Source: a virus (Duplodnaviria; Caudoviricetes). Taken from it: a stretch of 64,000 nucleotides of DNA. A program made the translations under genes and the position numbers. The notes below the pieces were generated by a model. It searched no databases, was not told the DNA's origin, and saw only the letters and a program-made list of their open reading frames with translations. Positions 3,601 to 59,096 of the stretch are shown piece by piece (the first letter of the stretch is position 1; the number at the start of each line of letters is the position of its first letter). The stretch spans positions 49,741 through 113,740 of the IMG/VR virus record IMGVR_UViG_2940228231_000002. The stretch is one strand, 5' to 3'.

Positions 3601-4467
3601 ATGTTAGCAAATAAATACAATTATGAGGACTATTACAAGGCGAATAAGACGCACACAGAGGAAGGGGCAACTTACGAGGATACACAGATACTGCCCTTCC
3701 CCACTATGAGGGAGCAGGAAGAGGAGCAGGGGCAAGAAGTAGCCACCCCCCTCCCACTACAAAAAGGAGCAGAGGGAGAACACAACCCCTCCCCTTCACG
3801 TAGTGACATATATAGAAAGCCTACCACCACCCAGTACAAGTCAGACGGCATATTAAAGCCAACCGCTGCCGATCCCATCAGGGATGCCAGTGACGTGCAA
3901 AAGATGTTAACATACTTTCTTGACAAAGGTAAGGTACGGGACTATACATTTTTGACGCTTGGTATATCGTTTGCCCTAAGAGCGGGCGATCTACTGTCGC
4001 TTAAGATAGAGGACGTATTTAACTTAGATGGCACAGTGAAGAGCCACTTTGTCATTTACGAGGATAAGACAAACAAGAGGCAGAAGGTGCACATCAATGA
4101 GAAGTGCAAGGAAGCCCTGTCCCTTTATCTAGACTCACTGGATGACGTATACAGCACTGACCCACTGTTTATGAGTAGGCAGCGCGATCAGTGGGGCAAC
4201 AAAAAGGCGATTACCATTCAGCAGGCAATCACGGTGCTAAAGAAGGCGGCCAAGGAGTGTGGCGTTAAGGGGCACATTAGCAGTCATAGTATGAGGAAGA
4301 CATTCGCCTACCACACGATAAAGAACAATGAGGGCAATCAAGAGGTGTTACTGATGTTACAGCACATGTACAAGCACACGGACATAAAGACCACATTCAG
4401 GTACTGCGGGATTGAAGAGGAGCAGATTGACGCACTGAGAGAAGATATAGGCGGGATTTTACTATGA
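3601..4467 (+). CDS. Tyrosine recombinase/integrase
   Basis: Catalytic motifs ALRAGDLL (R), EDKTNK (K), SHSMRK (HxxR), HMYKH and TFRYCG (Y). Confidence 0.92.
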   Translation: MLANKYNYEDYYKANKTHTEEGATYEDTQILPFPTMREQEEEQGQEVATPLPLQKGAEGEHNPSPSRSDIYRKPTTTQYKSDGILKPTAADPIRDASDVQKMLTYFLDKGKVRDYTFLTLGISFALRAGDLLSLKIEDVFNLDGTVKSHFVIYEDKTNKRQKVHINEKCKEALSLYLDSLDDVYSTDPLFMSRQRDQWGNKKAITIQQAITVLKKAAKECGVKGHISSHSMRKTFAYHTIKNNEGNQEVLLMLQHMYKHTDIKTTFRYCGIEEEQIDALREDIGGILL

Positions 4468-7039: not shown

Positions 7040-7078
7040 TACACAGCAGAAAATGACTAGAGATTGCGGGGTGGTTTA

Positions 7079-10000
7079 ATGTTTGCACCTAAACTATACT
7101 CTGTTTACAAAATATCTTTGCGGGATATTGTGGCGGCTGACTATAGGCTGAGTGGTACTAACGACGAGCTGAGAAAATATCGAGTGCGTCAGCAAGATGG
7201 TGGCATATTACGGCAAATACGCCTCATCACTGGAGACGACGGAAAGTTCAATCCATATATTGTGTTCGTCATGTTAGATAAAAAAGACAAAGAGATTATT
7301 GCCCAAATAATCAGGAACGGCTTTTATATCAACGAGACCCACTTCACATTTAGTGAGAGGTCGGCATCTATGACAAGGAGCGGAATGTTAAGTTTTGTAG
7401 ATACGACAATTATTGACGAACTTAATGAGCGTGTGAATATGGACATTGCAGATACTAAAACGGTACTCAGCAAGAAATATGCATACCGAGGATTGTTCCT
7501 AAGCTCCAGTCATATGCTTGAGGGATTCTTCCCCAAGATGATTGTAGTGCCAGACTACTTCCCCACTATAAAAGACCAGCACATCAAATATGCTTATGAT
7601 GATACGCTGCACTTTGTAGATAAAGAAGGTCGGGAACGCACGTGGACACAAAAGAATATCGCCGAGGGAATTAGGGATATTGAAATAAATGCTTTTGACG
7701 GGAGCGGGATTTGTCACCCTGCTATCTCAAGACAGATAGAGCAATTATTGGGAAGCCCTACCCCTGTCAGCAGTTATATTATCCGCGCACCTTACATTAA
7801 GGGCCTTGTACATGAAATTGATTATGAGTCGTTTTTCTTAGAGCGAGGCATCACACAAATCAAAGATATATGGGGCATATATCACGATTTCTCGGAGCCA
7901 ATGATTATTATGACTGAGGGCATGTATAAGGGGCTTGGATATTTCAAGACCTACGGCGATGAGCGAGATTGGGAGCTTTATTGGGAGAAATTTCATAAGT
8001 ATGAGCATTGCATAGGCATTACAAAGTGGAACTTCACCGCCGATGAAGAGCCTGTGTATACCAGAGCAAATTATCAGATACTGCAAGATTTGAAATTGTC
8101 TTATGAGGACTTTAGGAGCTTGTCGGACTACAGTATTGAATGGGCGGATAAAATTATCCACGGAGATCCATTTTATACATACTCCTTCCTCGGAATGTAC
8201 GCCGATAGTCATAAGGCAAAGAATGACTACATCGCTGCTATTCTTAAAGACCCAGAGATGTTAAAGGAGCAGAGCGTGAAAAAATACTTGCTGAACTCAC
8301 TGACAAAATATCGCAATGATATGAAGTGTGGCAAGTTATGGCTTAAGTCAACATTTAAGTTCTTGGCTCCAGATTTAATTATGCTTATGGAATGGATTGG
8401 CGGGCTTGACCCTGTAGGCTCTTTGGAGAGTGACGAATTTTATTCTCATAGTAAAGACGGGGCTTATGAGGGAGAGTTCTTAATTGAACGGAACCCGCAC
8501 ATCTGCCATAGTGAACATACTATATTGACTGGTGTTCAAAATGAAGTAATCAACACATATTGTTCTCATCTTGATAACGTGTGTATGATCAACTGTAAAA
8601 GTATTGTTCCTCAAAAAATAAACGGGGCCGATTACCCCTTAAAAAGTCCACCCTTGCAGGAATGCAAGGTGTGCAACGGTGTGAACTGCTTATCGGCAGG
8701 TGTGGTGGAAGCACATTGTATTGAGCAGGAAATGGCTCATTAATTCCGCTGCTAACTGGGGAGGTATGAATGTCGTGTTCATAATAATCCAGTGCTACAC
8801 TTTAAGCAAATAAGCTTAAAGAAAGTCTAGAGACTATGGGTGATGAGTGTAGCCCAGTACCTGCCCTATTGATACGGGTTTGGGAAGCGTACCGCCACCA
8901 GAACGGTGGAAGATATAGTCCCTATATATCAATATAGGTTTGATGGAGACCTGATTCTCCTGATTGATAATGAAATGATGATGCGAGGTGTTGACAGAGA
9001 TGCTCCAGTGGTTATGGACATCGAAGACAAAATTACAGCCCTCGCTGAAGAGGATACAATAGATAACCGAGTTAACCTAGTGTTACGCACAATAAACTCC
9101 TTAATTGGAGAAACGAGTAAATATTTGCTCCTTTGTATGGCGACATATAATAGCAAACCTCTTTAATTGCTGGAAACCCCTTAGAGCGTTTCTAACTACA
9201 ACATAATCAGAAATGATAAGTGTGAATGTGTAAAAATAGAAACGATTGGGCAATCAGCAGCCAAGCTCCTTAAACGGAAAAGGTTCAACGACTATCGCAT
9301 GTGCGAGTACATTCAAGCGAATGGAAACGGGAGGCATCTCCATGAGATGAAGATATAGTCTGTACATCTACGGAAACGTAGAGAGATGATATTAGCGACA
9401 TCATCGTAACAAAGTAGAATTGTGCAACAGGTTATCACAATAAGCAACCACGAGACGAGGAAACAAGAAAGAAATACGAGTCTTATGTGGATTTATTAAG
9501 CATAATTAACGGAAAGGTGATAAATGCGTAGGCTGTCACCCTATGTGGCGACACATAGAAAACAAGTTGGTGAACTCGTAAATGCGAGGTGTGCATCTTA
9601 CAGTTGGAATCGCAGGAAATGGCGATTTGAAGATGTGCTAACAGGGAAAAAGATTATCTCAATCCTGTGCCAAGCCTGAGCAGAGATGCTCTTGAAGGTC
9701 AAGAGACTAAGATACACGGGCTTTTTAAGTCTATGAAATCTGTACATGGTGAGTGAAATTCTCTCCGTGGAAGCGCCAACCTCTCACACTTGTGAGATGA
9801 AGATATAGTCCAAATGAGACTACGCCAAAACTGGAGTGTTGTACAACATTCCAAAACACATTGCAAAATATAGTAAGCCCCTGCCCTACTTCATGAAATA
9901 TGCGTCTGAGTATTATAAGGGATTGAATACTTTTTCAAACGCAAACAGCAACATGAATAGACTTTGTAAAGATATTGAGAAATGGAGCAAGAAACAGAGA

Positions 10001-10474
10001 TACACTGGGCTAGATAGAAACTTCGACTACAAAATAATGATAGACGATTCTATTGATATAGAGCCAGAGCTCCAAGAAGAAATAAATAAATTGTATTTAG
10101 AATTCTGTAAAGAAATGGCGGACTTGCACCATGACCAGACAAGCGTCAGAAAACGTGGAGACGAGTCCTTGTCTAAGTATAATGCTATGAACTTTACAAT
10201 TAACTGGGGATATTACTATGACACATATCGTGAAAGAAGCGAGAAAATTTGTGGGGATAAGAAAAAATTAGCAAACATGGCTGTTCGTGCCTGCTATGAA
10301 TTTCACCCGCAAAAGAAGAACTCAAAATTTGCTTGGTGCGTCGCTGGAGATGGTATTGTTGAGAACTTAAAACAACGGTCTCACCCACTCCCGCTTAGAG
10401 ACGATGACGGCGAATATGAGTATCTTGGGAAAAGATATACAATGAAACAAATAGAGGGGGTTGATGAAGAATAA
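7079..10474 (+). CDS. yonO: YonO-like single-subunit DNA-dependent RNA polymerase; spliced from exons 7079-8632, 8939-9118, 9418-9521 and 9817-10474 (~831 aa)
   Basis: Motifs ERSASM.R, FDGSG, IRAPYIKG and ERNPHI. Joining the exons restores catalytic NGAD|FDGD, LIGETS|NCATGYHNK and GKVI|DYAKTG. Synteny (RNAP, HU, terminase) matches SPbeta. Confidence 0.88.
8633..8938 (+). mobile_element. Group I intron 1 in the RNAP gene (306 nt, ORF-less)
   Basis: Exon ends in U and intron ends in G; P7 elements AGAGACTATG (~8829) and AAGATATAGTCC (~8910); removal gives in-frame ADFDGD. Confidence 0.88.
9119..9417 (+). mobile_element. Group I intron 2 in the RNAP gene (299 nt, ORF-less)
   Basis: P1 GAGU/GCUC with a U.G pair; core P AATTGCTGGAAA, Q AATCAGCAG, R TTCAACGACTA, S AAGATATAGTCT; terminal G. 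Confidence 0.92.
9522..9816 (+). mobile_element. Group I intron 3 in the RNAP gene (295 nt, ORF-less)
   Basis: P1 GGUGAU/GUCACC; P10 GCGUAGGCU pairs with the 3' exon AGACUACGC; R CAAGAGACTA, S AAGATATAGTCC; terminal G restores the frame. Confidence 0.9.
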
Positions 10475-10551: not shown

Positions 10552-11328
10552 TTGCTCGCAAAGTGGTTTTACGAGAATGGGGCGAAAACGGTATTAGATA
10601 TAAGAAACAAGCTCAAGGAATGGGCGACAGAAAATGATTTCTATTTAACGGTGGCTATGAATCCAGTAGCCACCAGAGTAATAACTGGGGACATGAAATT
10701 GCTTGGCACCTCCCCCATCTACATAAACGATGAGGATGTCAAGCTTATTAAAAACAGATTCGACACTGAAAAAGAAAGGCTTGTGGCATTGTCCATCCTG
10801 TGCTATGCGAAGGCATACGCAGACAAGAAGAAAGAATTCAGATTGTCGAAGAACGCATTCTCATTATGGGTTGGCATTGATAAGAAAACGACGAGAAAGT
10901 ATATCAATGAAGCTATAGATGTGGAGTATATTACTCTTTGCGATAAGGGTTCAATTAACTCATGGTATCAAACTACTGTAGTGAGTCAGCTTGGCACATA
11001 TAAGATTGAGGCCCCGCTAGAAAATAGTGGGCAGTATGAACTTGTGGATAATAATATCTATGAATTGTACGATTTAATATTTGAGGGCATTGATCAGACG
11101 CAAGAAGTTTGGTATGGCATACCAGAATATAATGACTGGTATCAGATTAGTAATATGGGGAGAGTAAAAGTTTGCGAGCGAATAGTTGGCGATAGAGTTT
11201 TTAAGTCGAAAATTCTTAAGCCATATAAAAGTAGCAGCGGAAAAGAATATATTTATATGTATTCTGATCAAAAAAAGCAAGAAAGGGTCTGCCTCGAAAA
11301 ACTAAAGCGAGTAATTGCAACGGATTAA
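10552..11328 (+). CDS. Hypothetical HTH-like protein with a C-terminal NUMOD4 motif (frame is open from 10468)
   Basis: C-terminal EVWYGIPEYNDWYQISNMGRVK is NUMOD4-like; no HNH motif follows. Confidence 0.7.
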   Translation: MLAKWFYENGAKTVLDIRNKLKEWATENDFYLTVAMNPVATRVITGDMKLLGTSPIYINDEDVKLIKNRFDTEKERLVALSILCYAKAYADKKKEFRLSKNAFSLWVGIDKKTTRKYINEAIDVEYITLCDKGSINSWYQTTVVSQLGTYKIEAPLENSGQYELVDNNIYELYDLIFEGIDQTQEVWYGIPEYNDWYQISNMGRVKVCERIVGDRVFKSKILKPYKSSSGKEYIYMYSDQKKQERVCLEKLKRVIATD

Positions 11329-13422: not shown

Positions 13423-13499
13423 GCTGGTATAGTTCAGTTAGGTAGAATACTTGTTTTGTACTCAAGATGTCTGAGGTTCAAATCCTCATGCCAGCTCCA
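13423..13499 (+). tRNA. tRNA-Thr(TGT)
   Basis: Acceptor GCTGGTA/TGCCAGC; loop TT-TGT-AC; U discriminator; CCA. Confidence 0.88.
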
Positions 13500-13545
13500 A
13501 AATAAAACGATGATGGAGGCAGAGCCTTCTACCCTTTCCCCATTT

Positions 13546-13576
13546 GTTGAAGTAGCTCAATGGTGGAGCAACTGAC
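13546..13576 (+). pseudogene. 5' half of a tRNA (acceptor, D-arm, start of the anticodon stem)
   Basis: GTTGAAG TA GCTC AATGGTG GAGC A ACTGAC; no matching 3' half found downstream. Confidence 0.5.
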
Positions 13577-14218
13577 AAACTGGCAGAAGAACAGTCGGCA
13601 GGATTTCTCCTAAGCCTGTATCCAAAACGGAGATATAAGTACCTATAAAAATATATACTAAAGTAACTCAGTGCAAACATCACTAGTTAGGTGGTGCTGA
13701 GGCATACTGGTTGAGTCAGTTATGTAAAAGACGGATACGTCTTTTCTGTAGCTGCGCGTCTTTAAGCGATTTCTGACGTGTAGGCAAAACCGAAACTCAA
13801 GGTATGGCACTGCGTTTACTGCAATCAAACGCACGAGATGAATGGGCAACGCAATAGAAAGAGTGGTTAAAAGCCACTCCGAATCCAAGTTAGGTTTTAG
13901 TTGGTGACTGTAGCAAACCTTGGAAATACCAACAAGTTGTTTCCCAGTGAAAGAGAGAAATCTCTGTATAACATTCGTCGAAGTACGAGTAGGGTGGGGA
14001 TTTTATAATATTGCTTTATCAAACGAATATAAGCACAAAATAAAATTTTCTGAATTAATCCTGAAAGTTGAGGGTAAGCAACCCCTCCAAAGTTTAGCTC
14101 TTTGATGGGCGTGGTAAAGAAGTCACTAGGGTAGCTCCCTTAGGCTCAGACTTTATCTCCTTTGTGGCAGAATATGGTTGAAAGTAAGCAACAGCAGGCT
14201 GAAAAGACACTTTCTGTA
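13577..14218 (+). ncRNA. Large structured ncRNA, GOLLD/ROOL-like (boundaries approximate)
   Basis: ~640 nt between tRNAs with no credible ORF and many helices (GAGTGGTT/AGCCACTC, GTTGGT/ACCAAC, CCAAG/CTTGG, GAGGGT/ACCCTC). GOLLD and ROOL RNAs are known from phage tRNA clusters. Confidence 0.55.
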
Positions 14219-14241
14219 TATATTTTTATAGGTACTTTTGA

Positions 14242-14316
14242 AGCAGGGTGGAGCAGTGGTAGCTAGTCAGGTTCATACCCTGAAAGTCGCAGGTTCGAGT
14301 CCTGCCCCTGCAACCA
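14242..14316 (+). tRNA. tRNA-Met(CAT), initiator-like
   Basis: TCAGG-TTCATAC-CCTGA arm; 1:72 mismatch; CCA. Confidence 0.9.
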
Positions 14317-14378
14317 ACACCTTTCTACCAAGTGTAGAGAGGGTCTGTCGAAGAACTTCTAGTCCTTCGACCTTTATG

Positions 14379-14455
14379 GGAGAGGTAGCTCAGATGGAAG
14401 AGAAAAACTAGTATCACTAGGTGTGTCGTAGGTTCGAATCCCACCCTCTCCGCCA
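14379..14455 (+). tRNA. Atypical tRNA-like element (nominal anticodon ATC)
   Basis: Good acceptor GGAGAGG/CCTCTCC, T-arm and CCA, but an aberrant anticodon arm (CTAGT-ATC-ACTAG). Confidence 0.55.
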
Positions 14456-14483
14456 GAAGATATATTGTGATTTCATTTAGCCT

Positions 14484-14577
<94 letters not shown>

Positions 14578-14584
14578 ATCATGT

Positions 14585-14660
14585 AGGGGTATAGCTCAGT
14601 TGGTAGAGCTGTGGTCTCCAAAACCACGTGCCGTGGGTTCAAGTCCTACTGCCCTTGCCA
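14585..14660 (+). tRNA. tRNA-Trp(CCA)
   Basis: GTGGT-CTCCAAA-ACCAC; canonical cloverleaf; CCA. Confidence 0.93.
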
Positions 14661-14816
14661 CTTAGTAATATATTTGGAATAAAATCCACAATGGCTCCAG
14701 CTCAGACTAACGCCAAATAAGGAGTTCCTTGTAGGTGGTGCATGGACAACAACCACTCACGCATATGGGAGTATAACCCTTTTAGTCGGGGGAAAAGACC
14801 GTAAGCCCATAATTTT

Positions 14817-14841
14817 GCCAGACATCTGTCTGGCTTTTTTT
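14817..14841 (+). terminator. Intrinsic terminator
   Basis: GCCAGACA-TC-TGTCTGGC followed by a T-run. Confidence 0.7.
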
Positions 14842-14917
14842 GGTTCTGTAGTGTAAATGGTTAACACATCAGGGTTCATCCTGAAAAGTCCGAGTTCGAT
14901 CCTCGGCGGAATCACCA
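14842..14917 (+). tRNA. tRNA-Glu(TTC)-like with a 6-nt anticodon loop
   Basis: Glu-type acceptor GGTTCTG/CGGAATC; arm TCAGG-GTTCAT-CCTGA; CCA. Confidence 0.65.
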
Positions 14918-41112: not shown

Positions 41113-44100
41113 ATGGGAAATGCAATAAAAAGTGGCTATCAAGTCACAGTCGGGTTAGATACCACGGAAATCCCGAATTATAAAGATGAAATAAATACAC
41201 AGTTGAAGAATATGTCAAAAGACATCAAACTCACTGTAAAGCCCGATCTTGCGGGTATTGACACTCTTAAAGCTGCTATTGAGCAGTTAAAAAAAGAGCA
41301 GATTGTCAAACTCACACTAGACGAATCCGAGGCAATAGCCTCAGTTAATAAAATCTCAGATACCTTTACAAAGGCATTCACCAGTAATTTTAGTGCAAAG
41401 GCGTTTGATGGTTTTGCAGGTGCAATGAAAAATGTCAGCACTGCGTCACAAACAGTTGCAACCGCTGCTGAAAAAGCCAAGACTGCGGTTCAACAGATTG
41501 GCAGCGTTTCAGGAGAGCAGGTTACTGATACAAATAGGTTAACTAGTAGTTTGAAAAAGTTCGCCACTGCACTTAGCGATATGGGTGGGGCTGAAGGTGG
41601 ATTTGAGGCGCTTAAAACAAACGCTGCTAATATAAGTAGCATAATACAGTCTCTTACAACTAATGAAAAAAAGATTGATATTGGTTCGGGTGCAGTTGTT
41701 AAAGACTTAGATAAAATAAGAAACAATCTTGATGGTATTAGTAGAAAAATCAAAGACTTATCAAAAATGGATATTGATACTGATTCTATAGAAAAAGTAG
41801 CAACTGTTAAAAAATCGAAAACCACTAAAAAGGAAGAGGCAAAACCACTTGGCGAGAACATCAATACTGGTGCAGATGAAGCCAGCAAAAAGCTAGTGAG
41901 TGTGCATGATACTTTAATTGATATTAGCAAAGCAATTGAAGCAATGCCAACGCTTGGAATTACAAAAAGTGCTGTCGATGCAAACAAAGAACTAGGAAAT
42001 GTACACAACTCTTTAATTGGTCTTGGTAAAACAATTGAAGGTATGCCAAAGGTACAAGTTGTTAAAGCTTCGACCGAGAAGCAGGCAACAGGTGGTGGCC
42101 CTAAGAAGTCTGAAGAAGAGGCGGTTCTTTCTGTTAAAAAGAAGCAGAACGATGCAGACGCTGAAAACTTAAGAATACAGGCAGAAGCTAAGGCACAGGC
42201 TAACGAAGAAGCTAGAATTTATACAGAAAAACTAACAATAGCAAAAGAACTAAATGCAGAATATACCAAATCAATTAAGGCTGAAATTGGAAAGAGTGAA
42301 ATTAACAACGTAGAAGAGCTGAAAGCCATCCGAGAAATCACCGAGGCTAATAAGAAGAAATACAACGATTATTTAAACATAACACAATTAAATAAAGAAG
42401 ATTTAGATGTTTTGCAGAAAAAGGTGTCTACCGCTGAAGAAGAGGTTAGAACCGCTCAACAACTGGCAGAAGCTAAGCGAAAGGATAGCTTAAACAAGGA
42501 CTATAGCAATGCGAATAAAACTCTACTCGGATTGGAAGACTCGCTTGTTAGAAAACGTAAGACTCTAGAGGGTACCGATAAGTTTGACAGCGATGAATAT
42601 GCTAAGCAGATTGTGGAATTAAATGAAATTGTTGATTTACGCAATAGAATCAAAGAACTTCAAGATACTGGAGGCGAGCCAAGCGTTTCAGAAGTTGAAG
42701 AGCTAAAGAAGAGAACCGAGGCTTTAAAGCGGTATGAAGAAGGGCTTACAAAGGTCACAAATGTTCGTAATATAGATGCAAAAGAACAAAGTAAATTAAC
42801 ATCAATCAGCCAAGCAATTACCAAAGACTTAAATGAAAATGGAAAAGCTATTAAGAAGATAGAACCGTTATATCAGAGATATATAACGCTTCAAAACCAA
42901 ATTTTTAATCAGACTATAAGTGGAGACGCAGCAAGAGAAGAACTCGCCAAGATTAGAATGGAAGCAGAAAAAGCTGGCATAACAACCAATACCCTTTTGG
43001 GACGGTTAAAGCAACTGTATAACAATAGAGGAGCTTCTATCATTGCATCTAAAGCAGTCCTTTTACTAGGTAGAGCTTTTCGTGATGTTTATCGAAATGT
43101 TGTAGATGTTGATACTGCAATGACTGAGTTGCGAAAAGTAACAAACGCAACTAGCCAAGAGTATAATGCCTTCTTAGATGGTGCTGGCGACAGAGCTCAG
43201 AAACTCGGTGCCACGCTGAAAGACGTTGTTTCGTCAAGCGCAGACTTCGCTAGATTAGGATATAATATTCCACAAGCATCTGCACTGTCTGATACTGCAC
43301 TCGTCTACTTAAATGTAGGTGACGAAGTTGAGAGCATAGATGATGCAACGAAGTCTATTATAAGTACAATGCAGGGTTTTGGCATAGAAGCTGAAAACTC
43401 GATGAGCATTGTTGATAAATTCAACCAAGTTGGTAACGAATTTGCAACCACATCAGGTGGCATAGGTGAAGGTATGTTGCGTTCAGCAGCAGCACTACAC
43501 GCCGCTAACAACTCACTAGATGAGTCAATCGCACTGTTCACAGCGGGACAGGAAGTTGTACAAAACGCTGAAAGTATGGGGACGGTACTTAAAACCACTT
43601 CCATGCGCATCAGAGGGGCCAAGACCGACCTAGAAGAGGCTGGTGAAGACACTGATGGTATGGCTACATCTGTCTCTAAATTAAGAGACGAACTGGTCGC
43701 CCTCACAGGTGGCTTCGATATAATGAAGAACGGTGGACAGGAATTCAAGTCCACGTATGAAATATTAAAGGGAATTTCTGATAGTTGGGAAAAGATGACA
43801 GACGTATCTCAAGCCAACGTATTAGAACTTCTAGCAGGAAAACGAAACGCTAACGCCCTTGCTGCGATTATCAAGAACTTCGATCAAGCAGAAAAGGTGC
43901 TAGCAACCTCTCAGAATAGTGCAGGCAAACAAAACTGCCTGAATGTACAGAAATGTGCATAAAGAACAGATCTAAAACCAGTAAATCCTAAAGCTCAACT
44001 ACTACAGTAGGGATGAAATATGCTGCTACGAATGTAACGAAAGTAAAACAACAGTTGAGATGATATATGGACAAAATCCTAAGTATCGCTACAATGGAAG

Positions 44101-47100
44101 CTTGGTCGCAAAATCTCGAATAGAGACGAGTCAAACGACTATCCCATAGGACTTCGGTCAATAGGAGTACGACGCAAATTTATGGCGTGGGTGAGAATCC
44201 CTTAAATGGAAAAGGTCTGCCCTTAACACGTTATGGTGAAGGTGAAGAAATAGTCTTAACGTCATACGAAAGTATGAGTTTATTATCAAATATAATAAAT
44301 GCAAGAGTTATGACCTTGCAAAAAATAATGAGTGCTCTGAGAGAAAACGAGATTTATCTCGATTCTATCCAAGGTAAGACAGATAAACTAACAGCCACAT
44401 GGCAAGTATTATCAAACAATTTATTGTCTTCAGATGCTGTAAAAGTTGTTATCGACGGCTTTAATCTAGCACTGACGACTGTAAATGCCCTCGTCGATGC
44501 CCTCGGACTATTGCCAGGATTGATTGCCGCTATCGGCACTTCATGGGCGAAAGCTAATAAAGTAGGTGAAGAATGTGCCCTCTTACCACAAGCCGTATAG
44601 GCAAGTGTTAGGAAGTTGATGACCGTCAATCATCAATACTTAATTTCCAAATTGCTGGGACTAGCTAAAGTTCGCAGACTAAAGCGGAACTGGAAACGGT
44701 AAACGTAAATGTGGGGAAACCCAGAAAAAACATGCGAAATGGTGTAAGCTGAGATAAAAGCCCTCACGGGTGCTAACCACCACAACAATGCTAAATCAGC
44801 AGCCAACTCCCTGCCCTACTATTTGTAGAATGGGAAAGTGCCCAACGACTGTAAGGAAATTGGAGCCCGTAAAGGACTTCTAAGAGACAGTCTGAACATG
44901 TGCAGAAATTGCACAGAGTAGAGTTGAAGTACTCTACCGCCGTAATTACAATAAAACACAATAAGATATGATTAAACACAAATAAATATGAAGAAATAGA
45001 AAAAATGGTTGAAAATTAAACTAAGTGGTGTATAATATAAATACAAAGAAAGAGTCATAAACGACTGGCTCAATTTGAATAGTTAAAGAAAAAACCACTC
45101 ACACTGCCAAGTCGAGAGTGGTTTTTCTTTACTTCGAGCGCTTTGAAAAGACTTGACTCTGTTGAATATTGGTGTATAATATAAATACAAAGAGCTACCG
45201 ATAGACGGTTAGCCAAAATGTTTAGTTGAAAAATAACCGAACCTTTGGACTTGGGCGGTTATTTTTTATTGCTCGTATATGTCAATATCAGTACAATTAA
45301 CGTAGATACGCCAATCACTACTGACAGAGTTTCATAACTCGTCAACTTATCACCTCCCTCCGTTTATGCGATTAGGACTTGCCAAAAGGCGTACCTTACT
45401 GCAATGATAACGTGGAGGCTAACCGCCTACCGCTTTGGTAGCTCAGGTATATTATAGCGCAACATTCAAGTCTTGAAAAGGAAAAAAGTTTCACAAAATA
45501 TGAGCGAGTTTTAGGAAAGATTTCACAAAATATGAATGAGTTTTAGATAAGAAAAAAGAGAGATGAAGGTCTCTCTTTTCATATGCAAAACGTACAACAT
45601 TGGAGAGTGTGCGCGTTTGCCAATATTATTTACTGCTCAGCTCCCATGAGTGGCCGCAGTTGTTGCAGACTTTGATCATTTTGTTGGCGCCAATCACACC
45701 AGCAACCGCACCAACGTCGAGGAATCCCGTGATCGCAGTGGTCGCTATCGCCCTGCCCCACTTCATGCCCCGCTTCTGTACGAACAGGTCTTGGGAATTG
45801 CATTTTGGACAGTATGGCTTACTAGGGTCGTTTCCAGCAGCGATTTCAGAAGCACGCCACTCTTCGTATTCTTTTTTATTTTGTTCATCTTTAAAGGCAA
45901 TCATAGCGTCATACGCTTCTTCACTATATGAATCGCCGAGAACTTTAGATGCAATAAATTTAAATTGACCATTTATATCGTGATCAAATAGGTGCTTTTC
46001 TGTAGAAGAGTTGTATATCTTAGACCACTGATTTGAGGTATGTCCAGAATCTACAAAATCACTACCACAAAATATACATTTACCATCTATTGCACTATAC
46101 TTCTCAAAATCAGGACTCATAATACCCTTGCCACATCCTTTGCAGACAGCAAGATGTTTTTTATCAATCTTATCATATACACTAACCATATAGACCTCCA
46201 TAGTTTATCAGTGTTATTATATTGATTATATCATATCTAAAAATAAAATCAAGGATCGTAATTACGGTCAGTAGCAGATTGACAATCTGTGAAAGTAACA
46301 GTTTGACATTCAGAGACAAAACAAATGACATAAGTGGAAAAGGCATTAAAGGAAAATTTGAAGCTTTATCACACAATTGGGGCGGAAGCATAACTGGATA
46401 TTTCAGCGGAAAAAACGGAAGTGCTGGGGTTGATGCGAGTTTAGCTGAAGTTGAGGTAATAAAGAAAATCAATGAGGAGTTTTCAAAAGGCGTTAAACCA
46501 GTAGATGCACTAGCGAATGCTGGTGGAAAACTCAAAGACAGACTAGAAGAACTTGTTAAAAATTCAGATGGAGTCCAGATGTCCATTGTGGAAGCTGGAA
46601 AAGGAGCTAAAGTAGGTGCAACAGGATTCCAACTACTAAAACTTCAAGTTGCTTCTACAATGACTGCGATGAAAGCTATGGCAAAGAGCTTCCTTATTTG
46701 GTTCGCTGTCATGGAAATCATCAACCTAGTCATAAAAGGCATCAAGTGGATGTTCGATACTGCACCGACCAAGAATCATATCCGTGAATGGGCAGAAGAA
46801 GCCCGTACTGCACTTGAAGACACTCGTAAGGAAGTAGATTCTGTAACATCAGAGCTTGAGACTATGAGGGACAGGATTGCAGAACTTGAGGGAATGGGAA
46901 ATCTTACTCTGACGGAACAAAGTGAGCTTGACCAACTAAAACAGCAAAATGCTGAACTATCAAAGAAATTGGCAATCCTTAAAGCCATTGAAGCTGAACA
47001 AAGCAGAGAGGCTTCTAGGAAGAGCTTTGCGGCTGCCGAGTCTTATGGTAAAAGTGAAGTCAAATACTCTGCTGCTACAGGTAGAGGTGGAGAGGTCGTT

Positions 47101-50100
47101 GCCCCTAATGTAGAATCAGACGCCATGTATAAAGACCTTGAACGCTATGTTGAACTATATAAAGAAGCTCAAGAAGAAATCGACAAGCTCAGTCCTTCCA
47201 GTGAAAAAGATAGAAAGAAATTTGAAGAACTGACCAAAGAAGCTGAAGGATATAAATCTTTCATTGTAGAGCTCTCTCAAGGCGTTTCAAAAGAGCTTGA
47301 AGGCGTCAACCGAGATAATCTATCAGCAGACCAATTACAAAAATATGATCAAATGATCAACGAGATTCAAAGTAGTTTGATAAATGTTGGCGTTTTAAAT
47401 ATGGGAGACATATTATCATCTGCTTTAAGTTCGAAAGAACTACAAGCACTTTCTGCCAACATGCAAGACCTTGCAGACTCTCAAAAAGAGATAAATGAAA
47501 ACTCAATTACAGAAGCAATTGGGCAAGATGCAGTTAATCTTCTAAATCAATACGGAATATCTATTGAGCAGTTGGTTGAAAATGTCGAAGCCCTTAGAGG
47601 GATTAGTGGTACTGTTGATAATGTATCGAAAAGTGATAAATTTAAAGACCAAGATATTAATGGGAAAATAAGTGCTATTACATCCGACAAAGACTTCAAT
47701 ATAGACATCACTTCTGCGACAAGTGCGCTTGGCAAAGACTTTGTTAAAGCGTGTGAAGAAGCGGGAGTTTCAGCAGAAGAATTGGTTGAGTGGTTAAAAT
47801 CAGTTCAGAAACAATCCGAAAAAACATCTCTTAGCGGGATGGTTGAAGAGTTTGCAGACTTTGAAGAAAAGATACAAACAGTTGTTGGTGCTATAGACGA
47901 ATTCAAAGAAAATAGCGGAAATGTGTCAGCCTCCTCTATTAAGGATGTTGCCGATGCATTCGAGTCTATGTCTGGCACTAAAGAATTTGAGAACATGATC
48001 AAGGTACTCTCTAATTCAGCATCTTCTATTGAAGAAGTTGAAAGTTCGATGAGTAATTTGGTCAATGCGTACTTACAGTCTAGCAATGTAATGGCAGACT
48101 TGAATGAAGGGACAAAAGAGTTATATATTAACAGACTCAAAGCCCAAGGTATAGCGAATGCAGAGGTTGTTGTAGAATATCAGTTGGCTAAAGCCAAATA
48201 TATGTCAGCAGACGCTAGTGATGCTCAACGTGCTGCCGCATTAGAAGAAATGCAGGCTATTATTTTAAACACAGGAGCGTTAGACAGGAATGCGGCGGCG
48301 GCATTAAGTGCTGCTGAGATGACGAGTCTGTTCGCAGGATATCAACAATTGGCGGCTGGAAATAACTTTGCATCTGTAGTTTCAAACCATGCAGTTGCAC
48401 TTGGAAAAGTAGCATCTGCTGCTGGCCCTGCTGCTGCTAATTTAAAAAAATATGTTGATATTGTTAGTGAAATCGCATCAATCAAAGGAATGCTTTCTGG
48501 TAAAAAACTAGACAACAGAGTAAAAACACGCCTAAATAGCCGACTTAAAGGACTTAGTAAAACATTAGATCGATATGCAGAAGAGGCAGAAAAAGAGTTT
48601 AACAACTTATTTGTTGCTGATATAAGCTTCAGTAGCGGTGGTGTTGCTGGTTCTGGAGGTTCTGGTGGTTCTGGCGGTAGTAAAGGCACATCAGCCTCAG
48701 ACAAGCGTAAAAATAAATATGACTCGGCGAAAGAGAAGCTAGACCATAAGCTGAATATGAACTACATTTCATATGCGACCTACTACAAACGCCTAGAAAA
48801 ACTCGGCAAGAAATACCTAAAAGGGCAGAAAGGTAATGCGGCTGATTACCGCAAACACCTCGAAGAGCTCGCAGATGTTAGAAAAGCGGCGTTCGACAAG
48901 GAAGAAGCTCAGAACGATAAGAAATACGCCAAAGGGCAAATCAGCCTGCGTACTTATCATAAGAGAACGCTCGCCTCAATTAAAAAGTGGCTCAAAACCA
49001 GCAAGGCAAATCAGGAAGATTATGCCGAAGCAATGGATGCACTTCAGAAGAAGATAAGCGACGCATGGGGCGACAGAATAAACAAACAGCAACAGCAGAT
49101 TGACCGCTTTGGCATCACTGGTTGGATTACCCCTGGCAAGAGTGAGGCAGACTATTGGCGTGACCAATTAGCCCTCTTAATCGAAGACCAAGGTAAAGGC
49201 TTGTTTACAGACACTGACGCTTTCCTAGACCTCTACTATGAAATACTAGAAAAGATTAAAAACGCCGAGGCAGAGTTGGCAGACAATGAGCTAGATAAGA
49301 TTGAGAAGAAAATCGGCAATGTTGACGACCTAGTAGATATGGTCTCCAATATGCTCAAGCAAAGACTAGAAGACCAGATTGACGCCCTTGAAGAGCAGAT
49401 AGATAAGTACAACGAAATCGTTGACCTTAAGAAGAAATCTCTCGACATAACAAGAGACGAGCTTGACTATCAGCGCGAACTTAAGGAGCAGAACGAGGAA
49501 CTGACCAAACTGCAAGCTAAGGCGGCGGTGCTAGCTCTTGACACCTCTCGTGAAGGTAAGGCGAAATACGCAGCCCTCATGGAAGAAATCAGGGCTAAAC
49601 AGCAGGATATTTCTGACAAGCAGTCTGACCACGCTTATGACGGCACTGTAGACGCACTCGACGAAGCTACTGAAAAGTACGAAAAAGAGATGCAGAAGCA
49701 GATTGATGACCTCAATGCGAAGATGGAGAATAATGGTGAGTGGCTACAGGGTGTTTATGACTACATCCAATACACAGACCCTTCTGCCCTGCTGGATGAG
49801 TTATTGGCGTATAACTATAAATACGGCGACGGACTCAACAGTACAGTGGAAGACATGTGGGAAAGAACTGAGCCCCTACTCCAATCTTATCAGTATGACA
49901 TTCGTACCATTATTGACGAACTACGCAGACTTAAGTTAGAGCAAGAGAAGCAAATCGAAGAAGCTAAATCCAATAAGAATGATAAATTCGCTGACTTGAC
50001 TCTTGAGCAAACCAAAGAAGCAGTCTCTGCCAGAAATACTAGAACAAACAGCGACGCTGACAACCTTGCCCTTCTTGCGAGAATCAAGCAAGGTAAATGG

Positions 50101-50772
50101 AACGGCGGAAAAGCTTGGTATGACTCAGAGACTAATCTAATCTGGATGGGTGATCATGGAGAGAAGAAAATGACTGCCAGTGCCTACTGGCTCATTAAAG
50201 ACATGAAAGCCATAAACAATGATACTAGCAAAACCAAAGCCCAGAAGCAAAAAGAGCTCGACCCACTACTGGAAGAGTTGCACGGGTACTATGGTTATCC
50301 AAACGCTCACTTAGATTGGAACAAGACAACTAAGAAGTTTGAACTGCACCGTAAGAAAGGAACTGCGGCCGCATATAAAGTATTCCACAGTGGACTTGGT
50401 GGCGGTTTCGTTGGCGATACATATATGCCAACAAAGAAGCAGAGCGAGACCTATGCCCTACTCAAGAATGACGAACTTGTGCTAAACAAGAACGATCAAG
50501 ACAGAATTGGGCTACAGCTTCAAACACTTAGCATGTTGACTGAATCTATCAAGGGCATCTTGCCTACAAACAGCGTTTCAAACAACAATCAATCAACTGG
50601 TATTGAGATTAATATACCAATAAACATCGATGGCAATGCCACGGGCGATACTGTGAGAGCCTTGAGGAGTGCCAGCAATCAAATCGCAAACGAGACACTC
50701 AGCAAAGTTACTGAGGCTATGAATCAGCGTGGATATAATTCGCGCGTTGGCTCAAATGCGATGAGAAGATAA
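41113..50772 (+). CDS. Tail tape measure protein; spliced from exons 41113-43926, 44331-44567 and 46306-50772 (~2505 aa)
   Basis: TP901-type core (DTAMTELRKVT, DKFNQVGN, LAGKR); splicing restores NSAG|SALRENEIYLDSIQGK and KVG|TFRD; long coiled coils. Confidence 0.88.
43927..44330 (+). mobile_element. Group I intron 1 in the tape measure gene (404 nt, ORF-less)
   Basis: P1 CAGGC/GCCUG; P10 ACU/AGU; R AAACGACTAT, S AAGAAATAGTCT; terminal G; frame restored. Confidence 0.85.
45009..45130 (+). ncRNA. Promoter-sRNA-terminator unit 1 inside the intron (orphan antitoxin-like)
   Basis: TTGAAA...TGTATAAT promoter; ~90-nt ORF-free transcript; terminator AAAAACCACTC...GAGTGGTTTTT. Confidence 0.5.
45153..45270 (+). 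ncRNA. Promoter-sRNA-terminator unit 2: antisense RNA overlapping the toxin 3' end
   Basis: TTGACT...TGTATAAT promoter; shared bidirectional terminator AAAATAACCG...CGGTTATTTT. Confidence 0.6.
45259..45345 (-). CDS. Putative type I toxin (holin-like toxin, 28 aa)
   Basis: MTSYETLSVVIGVSTLIVLILTYTSNKK*; TTG start; GGAGGTG RBS; one TM helix and a basic tail; TATAAT upstream at 45451-45456. Confidence 0.75.
   Translation of the reverse strand: MTSYETLSVVIGVSTLIVLILTYTSNKK
45626..46189 (-). CDS. Zn-ribbon membrane-associated protein (intron cargo, antisense)
   Basis: CKGC/CIFC and CPKC/CNNC pairs around a Gly-rich hydrophobic segment; own promoter (46225-46252), GGAGG RBS and terminator (45554-45580). 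Confidence 0.8.
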   Translation of the reverse strand: MVSVYDKIDKKHLAVCKGCGKGIMSPDFEKYSAIDGKCIFCGSDFVDSGHTSNQWSKIYNSSTEKHLFDHDINGQFKFIASKVLGDSYSEEAYDAMIAFKDEQNKKEYEEWRASEIAAGNDPSKPYCPKCNSQDLFVQKRGMKWGRAIATTAITGFLDVGAVAGVIGANKMIKVCNNCGHSWELSSK

Positions 50773-58904: not shown

Positions 58905-58919
58905 AAATGAGGTGGCTAA

Positions 58920-59096
58920 ATGGAAATTAAATGGCTGAGCCTTGAGGGGCTTGAATACTTTTTCAACTCAGTTAAGCGGCTCATTCCGACCAAAAACAGC
59001 CAACTTGAGAACGATAGTGATTTTATTACAGTAGAAGAAATTGGCGACATGACTACTTCTGCGGAAATAATTACATGGGATGAGGGGGATGAGTAA
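58920..59096 (+). CDS. Small fibre-associated protein (58 aa, not in the ORF track)
   Basis: MEIKWLSLEGLEYFF...PTK.SQLEND; GAGGTGG RBS; stop overlaps the next start. Confidence 0.65.
   Translation: MEIKWLSLEGLEYFFNSVKRLIPTKNSQLENDSDFITVEEIGDMTTSAEIITWDEGDE

Follow-up and report, generated by a model that had tools for sequence, protein, structure and literature searches.

Phage genes that hold more than one intron are classic, and orf142 of Staphylococcus phage Twort reportedly carries three group I introns whose splicing was shown experimentally. Twort orf142 resembles the locus that we describe here in having three small group I introns, here predicted to be self-splicing, within one phage gene, but the host gene and the intron lineages are different. 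RNA polymerase genes can also be interrupted: that for the beta-subunit of the PhiPA3 RNA polymerase contains a group I intron beside conserved Asp residues, with the HNH endonuclease gp210 (PMC11620839). That polymerase is, however, a multi-subunit enzyme of a Gram-negative jumbo phage, and its endonuclease is an active homing endonuclease in phage-phage competition (PMC11620839), whereas the introns reported here have no ORF. In SPbeta, the bnrdE and bnrdF genes hold group I introns (Lazarevic 1998, as cited in PMC8270828); these are likewise group I introns of an SPbeta-type temperate phage, but lie in ribonucleotide reductase genes. YonO is described as the late-gene polymerase of SPbeta (PMC8270828; PMC5467207).

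The nearest counterparts lie in public phage records. In Bacillus phage vB_BsuS-Goe11 (Goe11; MT601272.1) the yonO gene is interrupted after YonO residue 625 and has been entered in three pieces, as yonO_1, a hypothetical protein and yonO_2; we found no literature describing this interruption as an intron. The Goe11 intron is of the lineage of introns 1 and 3 of our locus, sharing with them GUGAAC-hairpin-GGUGU, the AGGAAAUG loop, GCUAACAGGG, a splice site preceded by GAU and a G as the last base; and it lies, like intron 3, within the ID(F/Y)AKT motif. It differs in being a single, 1290-nt intron with a GIY-YIG-like ORF, whose insertion point follows the Asp codon and so lies 4 nt 3' of the site used here. 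The Enterocloster phages CB473P3 and CB457P2, and the gut contig MT835481, also have split YonO-like genes with introns of this lineage, inside DFDGD and at ELD/K (a slash within a peptide or exon-intron string marks the point of interruption), and their gene pieces are annotated as hypothetical proteins or carry no annotation. In these three the catalytic-motif intron is at DFD/GD, 6 nt downstream of the site here, and intron 2 has no counterpart. CB473P3 has two ORF-less introns in its polymerase gene; the introns of CB457P2 and MT835481 carry HNH-type ORFs, unlike the introns here. PMBT24, a sibling of CB473P3 and CB457P2, is intronless, and introns are not mentioned in the PMBT24 paper. 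Our literature search for introns in yonO-type genes found no describing paper.

Here we describe a gene at 7079-10474 (+) of a 64,000-nt stretch of phage DNA from IMG/VR record IMGVR_UViG_2940228231_000002 (the window, in whose numbering positions are given). We read this gene as one that encodes, in a large prophage, a single-subunit RNA polymerase of the YonO type and that is interrupted by three ORF-less group I introns of two lineages, which are best seen as selfish mobile elements and not as a built-in regulator; we put the probability of this reading at about 0.85.

Exon structure and homology of the polymerase gene

The YonO-like gene consists of four exons and three introns (Table 1). 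Joined, the exons form a frame that is open up to its single stop at the end and is 2511 nt long if it begins at TTG 7064, or 2496 nt (831 aa) if at ATG 7079; given the RBS GGGGTGG, ATG 7079 is the likely translation start. The last codon of exon 1 (gat, 8630-8632) ends ...NGAD and exon 2 opens with FDGD at 8939, so that the 8632/8939 join restores the motif which, as a sequence-only reading of this DNA had claimed, is split by intron 1 between its first Asp and the Phe (NGAD/FDGD). The end of exon 3 leaves an Ile codon one base short, and exon 4 supplies this base as its first. The ORF list for the region holds a 559-aa frame (7064-8743), a 212-aa frame (9836-10474) and short frames in between; exon 3 is missing from it because an in-frame TAG lies directly upstream and there is no usable start codon, which accounts for the earlier remark that a 104-nt third exon escapes ORF calling. 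Every exon and intron coordinate proposed by the sequence-only reading proved to be correct, with an in-frame join and a product of ~831 aa as it had predicted.

Table 1. The interrupted polymerase gene: exons, introns and helices of intron 1 (window positions, except where intron numbering is stated).
Feature	Position	Strand	Detail and basis
RBS GGGGTGG	7068..7074	+	4 nt 5' of ATG 7079; read from sequence
Exon 1 (518 aa)	7079..8632	+	C-terminal ...INGAD, ending in first Asp of DFDGD; tblastn to yonO of SPBc2, E 2e-15; 47% identity to TR-TP1 gp3
Intron 1 (306 nt)	8633..8938	+	Predicted group I, 'YonO-intron' lineage; helix table, covariation; terminal G 8938
Intron 1 helices, 5' part	P2 20-26/31-37; P3 45-51/256-262; P3.1-P3.3 insert; P4 123-128/156-161		Intron numbering
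Intron 1 helices, 3' part	P7 200-204/284-288; P8 263-267/273-277; P9 290-295/300-305		Intron numbering
Exon 2 (60 aa)	8939..9118	+	FDGD...GETS; sequence and alignment
Intron 2 (299 nt)	9119..9417	+	Canonical group I with P7.1/P7.2 (IA-like); RF00028 104.6 bits, E 4.5e-26, full model 1-253
Exon 3 (104 nt)	9418..9521	+	34 codons + 2 nt, missed by ORF calling; sequence and alignment
Intron 3 (295 nt)	9522..9816	+	Predicted group I, paralog of intron 1, no P9; RF00028 22.5 bits, E 0.005 (<50 bits); helix table
Exon 4 (1 nt + 218 codons + stop)	9817..10474	+	C-terminal domain; PHROG 8308 positions 644-844

The spliced product is 45-68% identical to intronless homologs, and the alignments are gapless over all three junctions. 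Gp3 of the Thomasclavelia phage TR-TP1, an uninterrupted protein of 864 aa, aligns without a gap at each of them: NGAD/FDGD against NGCDFDGD at junction 1, GETS/NCATGYHNK against GEYSNYSSCYHNK at junction 2 and INGKV(I)DYAKTG against FVGKEVDASKTG at junction 3. In a five-way alignment, the restored catalytic DxDGD motif falls on DNDGD of YonO and on DFDGD of TR-TP1 and PMBT24; this alignment also answers the comparison of the ~831-aa product with YonO that had been suggested as a check, and homology extends over the full length. Two intronless contigs (L002 and L006) each give a single continuous tblastn HSP, covering residues 6-829 and 1-827 respectively, and in a same-family genome a homolog of 68% identity lies within a 902-aa open frame.

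The family assignment made from the sequence alone, that the gene is YonO-type, stands: the exon 1 tblastn search, PHROG 8308 at both ends, the alignment with YonO and the catalytic motif all agree on it. With exon 1, tblastn matched yonO of SPbeta-like phages at E 2e-15 and, more strongly, 'RNA-dependent RNA polymerase' genes of Thomasclavelia, Enterocloster and Psychrobacillus phages. In PHROG 8308 (847 positions), exon 1 corresponds to positions 107-550, and the gap between it and exon 4 has the size of exons 2 and 3 together; full-length homologs bear PF05183. When the complete gene was compared with the phage collection by megablast there was no match, nor did Pfam and NCBIfam on the separate exons; a PDB sequence search with exon 1 returned chance matches only, and an exon 1 peptide-pattern search of genome contigs confirmed no relative.

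Features common to the three introns

The base 5' of each intron is T/U (8632, 9118 and 9521) and the last base of each is G (8938, 9417 and 9816). The J8/7-P7 strand AAGATATAGTC has exactly three copies in the 64 kb, one near the 3' end of each intron, and both AAGAUAUAGUC and GACUA are found in all three. The ORF list shows no ORF of 60 aa or more inside introns 1, 2 or 3, and no intronic endonuclease ORF; the reading frame runs for 108 nt into intron 1, and for 45 nt into intron 2, before a stop. That these are three ORF-less group I introns, as was proposed from the sequence, is borne out by their U and terminal-G ends, by their core helices and by covariation, and from such features we infer that all three would be self-splicing. 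The outcome with group I models, which had been suggested as a further check, was mixed: against Rfam RF00028 (gathering threshold 50 bits), intron 2 was clearly positive, intron 3 fell below the threshold (Table 1) and intron 1 gave no match at E<=10.

These features also bear on whether the gene is split at the protein level, its pieces being translated separately and then assembling like the split polymerase subunits of jumbo phages. There are separate ORFs for exon 1, exon 2 (from GTG 8906) and exon 4 (from GTG 9836), in favour of such an arrangement; but the breaks fall inside DFDGD and inside the exon 3/4 codon, exon 3 is without a start codon, the U and terminal-G rule is obeyed, and group I ribozyme folds are predicted for the intervening sequences. 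We find a split protein barely credible.

Intron 2 is of a familiar type: its P1 pairs GAGU with GCUC, and introns of many unrelated phages match ~70% of its length at 72-77% identity. Those parts of intron 3 that align with RF00028 are core parts, namely P4-P6, J6/7-P7, P8 and J8/7. Intron 3 has a perfect 6-bp P1 (GGUGAU/GUCACC) and a P10 with the 3' exon in which 8/9 bp form; an in-frame TAG lies three codons past the interrupted Ile codon (ata, 9520-9522). We considered whether the position of site 3, 4 nt from that of Goe11 and the CB phages, is forced by the Asp codon GAC, and rejected this, as viral contig L090 has GAT and the same intron position as here.

The lineage of introns 1 and 3

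The 5' halves of introns 1 and 3 are alike, and BLAST with intron 3 led to the Enterocloster phages and the gut contig, where the homologous polymerase gene is also split. Introns of this lineage occur at the same or adjacent codons in CB457P2, CB473P3, MT835481 and Goe11. The elements found across the lineage are, on the 5' side, the P3 5' strand, GUGAAC, the hairpin P3.1 and GGUGU; then a bifurcated stem P3.2/P3.3 with loop AGGAAAUG, GCUAAC, P4 ACAGGG, P7 GACUA/UAGUC and the terminal G. In an alignment of seven introns from four phage groups, 96.4% of cells in P3.1-P3.3 are paired and 14 of the 16 pairs show compensatory changes, a level reached by 0/500 shuffles; slid controls gave 28-48%. 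A Rfam-like placement, with P3 of introns 1 and 3 adjoining P4, was replaced by a 7-8 bp distal pairing, which covaries.

This conservation of helices, with its compensatory changes, therefore argues that introns 1 and 3 are both group I ribozymes which RF00028 misses; and the model is silent also on the homologous introns of Goe11, CB457P2, CB473P3 and MT835481, none of which it matched, suggesting that it misses the whole lineage. On this sequence evidence, introns 1 and 3 are predicted group I ribozymes of a second lineage, separate from intron 2. A tie to the experimentally spliced bnrd introns of SPbeta was rejected: the SPBc2 record contains no copy of the lineage motif.

In polymerase genes, GAU precedes every intron of the lineage that we examined in detail, and most of the polymerase-linked motif matches. 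The lineage motif is found in more than 114 viral contigs; among the matches listed, it adjoins a YonO-like gene in 40/119, the other 79/119 being in other phage genes and not near an RNAP. Some copies in relatives bear ORFs of HNH or GIY-YIG type, in contrast to the copies here. CB473P3 (OP172757.1) has a third copy of the lineage at ~58909-58961 on the minus strand, in another gene and far from the polymerase gene.

A wider proposal can be built on these observations. Introns 1 and 3 would belong to a large, unnamed phage group I sublineage, missed by RF00028 and marked by the covarying two-hairpin P3.1-P3.3 module (loop AGGAAAUG) between the P3 5' strand and P4, that has repeatedly colonised YonO-type polymerase genes, at GAU (Asp) codons within the catalytic motif and within ID(F/Y)AKT; and several retained ORF-less copies might gate late transcription, or shield codons from the homing endonucleases of ORF-bearing copies in competing phages. 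Taken as a whole, we think this unlikely.

Is intron 1 functional?

Intron 1 deserves separate treatment, as RF00028 did not match it, and neither was there a match in a 341-nt slice around it. We aligned intron 1 with three same-site homologs, from viral contigs L044, L090 and L092, and mapped onto the four sequences a structure model of 14 helices with P7 as a pseudoknot. In this model 94.0% of cells are paired and 27 of the 78 pairs are compensatory, which 0/500 shuffles equalled; slid controls gave 32-48%. P3, P4, P6, P7.1, P7.2 and P8 are all retained in the alignment.

Some parts of intron 1 are less regular. In P1 the U.G pair is present, but the unambiguous part is only 3 bp (GAU/GUC), because the next candidate pairs compete with P2; an extended P1, of exon GGGG with intron CCC 19-21, was rejected, since P2 requires these bases and L044 cannot form the pairing. 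J4/5 is GAGG and not an A-rich strand, and the terminal G falls inside the predicted P9 stem. A small hairpin surrounds the 5' splice site at 8621-8640 (GGGG-CCGAU/UA-CCCC), and the L044 homolog has a compensated version at 8999-9016 (GGAG-CAGAU/UA-CUCC); such a hairpin could compete with P1. Furthermore, the exon 1 frame continues for 108 nt into the intron, and ribosomes could therefore disturb its folding. Together P1, J4/5, the P9/terminal G arrangement, the run-in and the splice-site hairpin mean that poor splicing of intron 1 has some small probability.

If so, the gene might be decaying: at least one intron, most likely intron 1, would splice inefficiently and the polymerase would be a pseudogene in a cryptic prophage. 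The 3-bp P1, the lack of a RF00028 score, the non-consensus J4/5 and the translated run-in all point that way, but none of the four exons is broken, they are colinear with homologs that look active, and every core helix of intron 1 has been kept, with compensatory changes against the same-site homologs. At least 27 other homolog clusters end right after NGAD, and because this is the exact site of intron 1, the insertion is widely maintained; long, intact structural genes are also found elsewhere in the prophage. We consider a decaying gene very unlikely, and return to the reading of a polymerase gene restored by splicing.

Distribution of the introns and annotation of the gene

To see how common such interruptions are, we took the 120 closest homolog clusters of the exon 1 protein (54-100% identity). 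Full-length proteins make up 62 of these, and the remaining 58 end at one of the three intron sites: 38 at the DFDGD motif (mostly right after NGAD, a few after NGADFD), one at GETS/, the intron 2 site, and 19 around the intron 3 site. Viral contigs L044, L090 and L092 have two or three ORF-less introns in the polymerase gene, and the site-3 intron of L090 is at the identical position; neighbouring positions are used in other phages, at DFD/GD (6 nt away) and ID/ (4 nt away). In L092 (IMGVR_UViG_3300045988_158868), two tandem group I introns surround site 3 at 9370-9965, with a micro-exon of ~22 nt between them, and a third intron is at the DFDGD site.

It had also been expected from the sequence that annotation would fragment this gene, and it does so: in the protein collection the gene called from the window itself is a stub of 554 aa that has no Pfam domain, and for related phages the pieces appear in public records under separate names, either 'hypothetical proteins' or yonO_1 and yonO_2. 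Stubs that end at DFDGD lose the Pfam polymerase domain.

Prophage context

Downstream of the polymerase gene, on the same strand, are packaging and tail genes, including those for terminase, portal and tape measure. A tyrosine-integrase-like gene (3601-4467, +; PHROG 216, E 2.5e-40) lies ~2.6 kb upstream of the polymerase gene, as would be expected if the prophage had its left end close to where the window starts.

The gene after the polymerase (10552-11328, +) encodes a conserved phage domain and a C-terminal NUMOD4 DNA-binding module, with no nuclease domain. NUMOD4 is a type of module found in HNH homing endonucleases. We rejected this ORF as a free-standing homing endonuclease, as its N-terminus resembles gp4 of TR-TP1, a conserved neighbour (25% identity over the N-terminal 173 aa), and it did not match the intron ORFs of the relatives.

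Just 3' of the polymerase and exonuclease genes there is an array of six tRNA genes (13423-14914, +), within which lies a ROOL RNA (RF03087, 299 bits; 13643-14228). The tape measure gene (41113-50772, +) also looks split: its ORFs at 41113-43962, 44187-44600 and 46222-50772 correspond to PHROG 4211 positions 12-868, 869-949 and 2206-2617. RF00028 matches the first gap weakly (25.3 bits, 44166-44278); the second opens with a near-threshold RF00028 match (46 bits, 44583-44916) and holds a reverse-strand zinc-ribbon ORF (45626-46201). If these gaps are group I introns, then the prophage total would be at least five.

Discussion

We suggest that the polymerase pre-mRNA would fold to give three ribozymes, and that each intron would be excised in the two transesterification steps usual for group I, the first of them started by guanosine. 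Ligation would restore NGAD-FDGD in the mRNA, which would then be translated to the 831-aa polymerase, and this enzyme probably transcribes the phage late genes, as YonO does in SPbeta; we infer this role from SPbeta and from the gene order, in which the structural genes follow the polymerase gene and share its strand.

With its catalytic motif split, the enzyme can be active only if each of the three introns is spliced out. To this extent the earlier proposal that late transcription depends on three splicings holds, in that the dependence of the enzyme follows from the split motif; its further suggestion, that these events act as a timing or physiological checkpoint, finds no support, there being no regulatory RNA adjoining the introns, intronless close relatives and a patchy occurrence of the introns. 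Splicing that is rate-limiting or condition-responsive (to GTP, Mg2+ or translation coupling) could in principle time late transcription, given that the enzyme cannot be active until all three introns have been spliced and that the run-ins of 108 and 45 nt into introns 1 and 2 could link splicing with translation; in other systems there are group I introns whose splicing is controlled by a ligand. However, our search for a riboswitch or other regulatory RNA adjoining the introns found none, and thus no sensor; close relatives have 0, 1, 2 or 3 introns at varying positions, which fits neutral or selfish turnover; and the lineage inhabits many unrelated phage genes, as the preponderance of matches away from an RNAP, among those listed, makes plain. 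We see a very slim chance of such a regulatory gate.

We prefer to read the introns as selfish mobile elements, for which patchy presence and absence among relatives is as expected. They may be what is left after the loss of homing-endonuclease ORFs, seated in the most conserved codons of the gene, and such an origin as selfish elements seems probable to us; shielding of the occupied sites from the homing endonucleases of related introns may be a side benefit.

The case illustrates well a pattern that is common but poorly annotated, and does not reveal a new mechanism. Its value for annotation is that a clade of phage polymerases is systematically mis-annotated, with 58 of the 120 closest clusters represented by stubs, and it is also of use for a census of these introns. 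Dense, recurrent intron sites are found round one catalytic motif: D/FDGD, DFD/GD, GETS/N, I^D and ID/. With ORF-less and endonuclease-bearing copies of one lineage at these sites, YonO-type polymerase genes offer a natural system for the study of homing versus site shifting, and of phage-phage competition.
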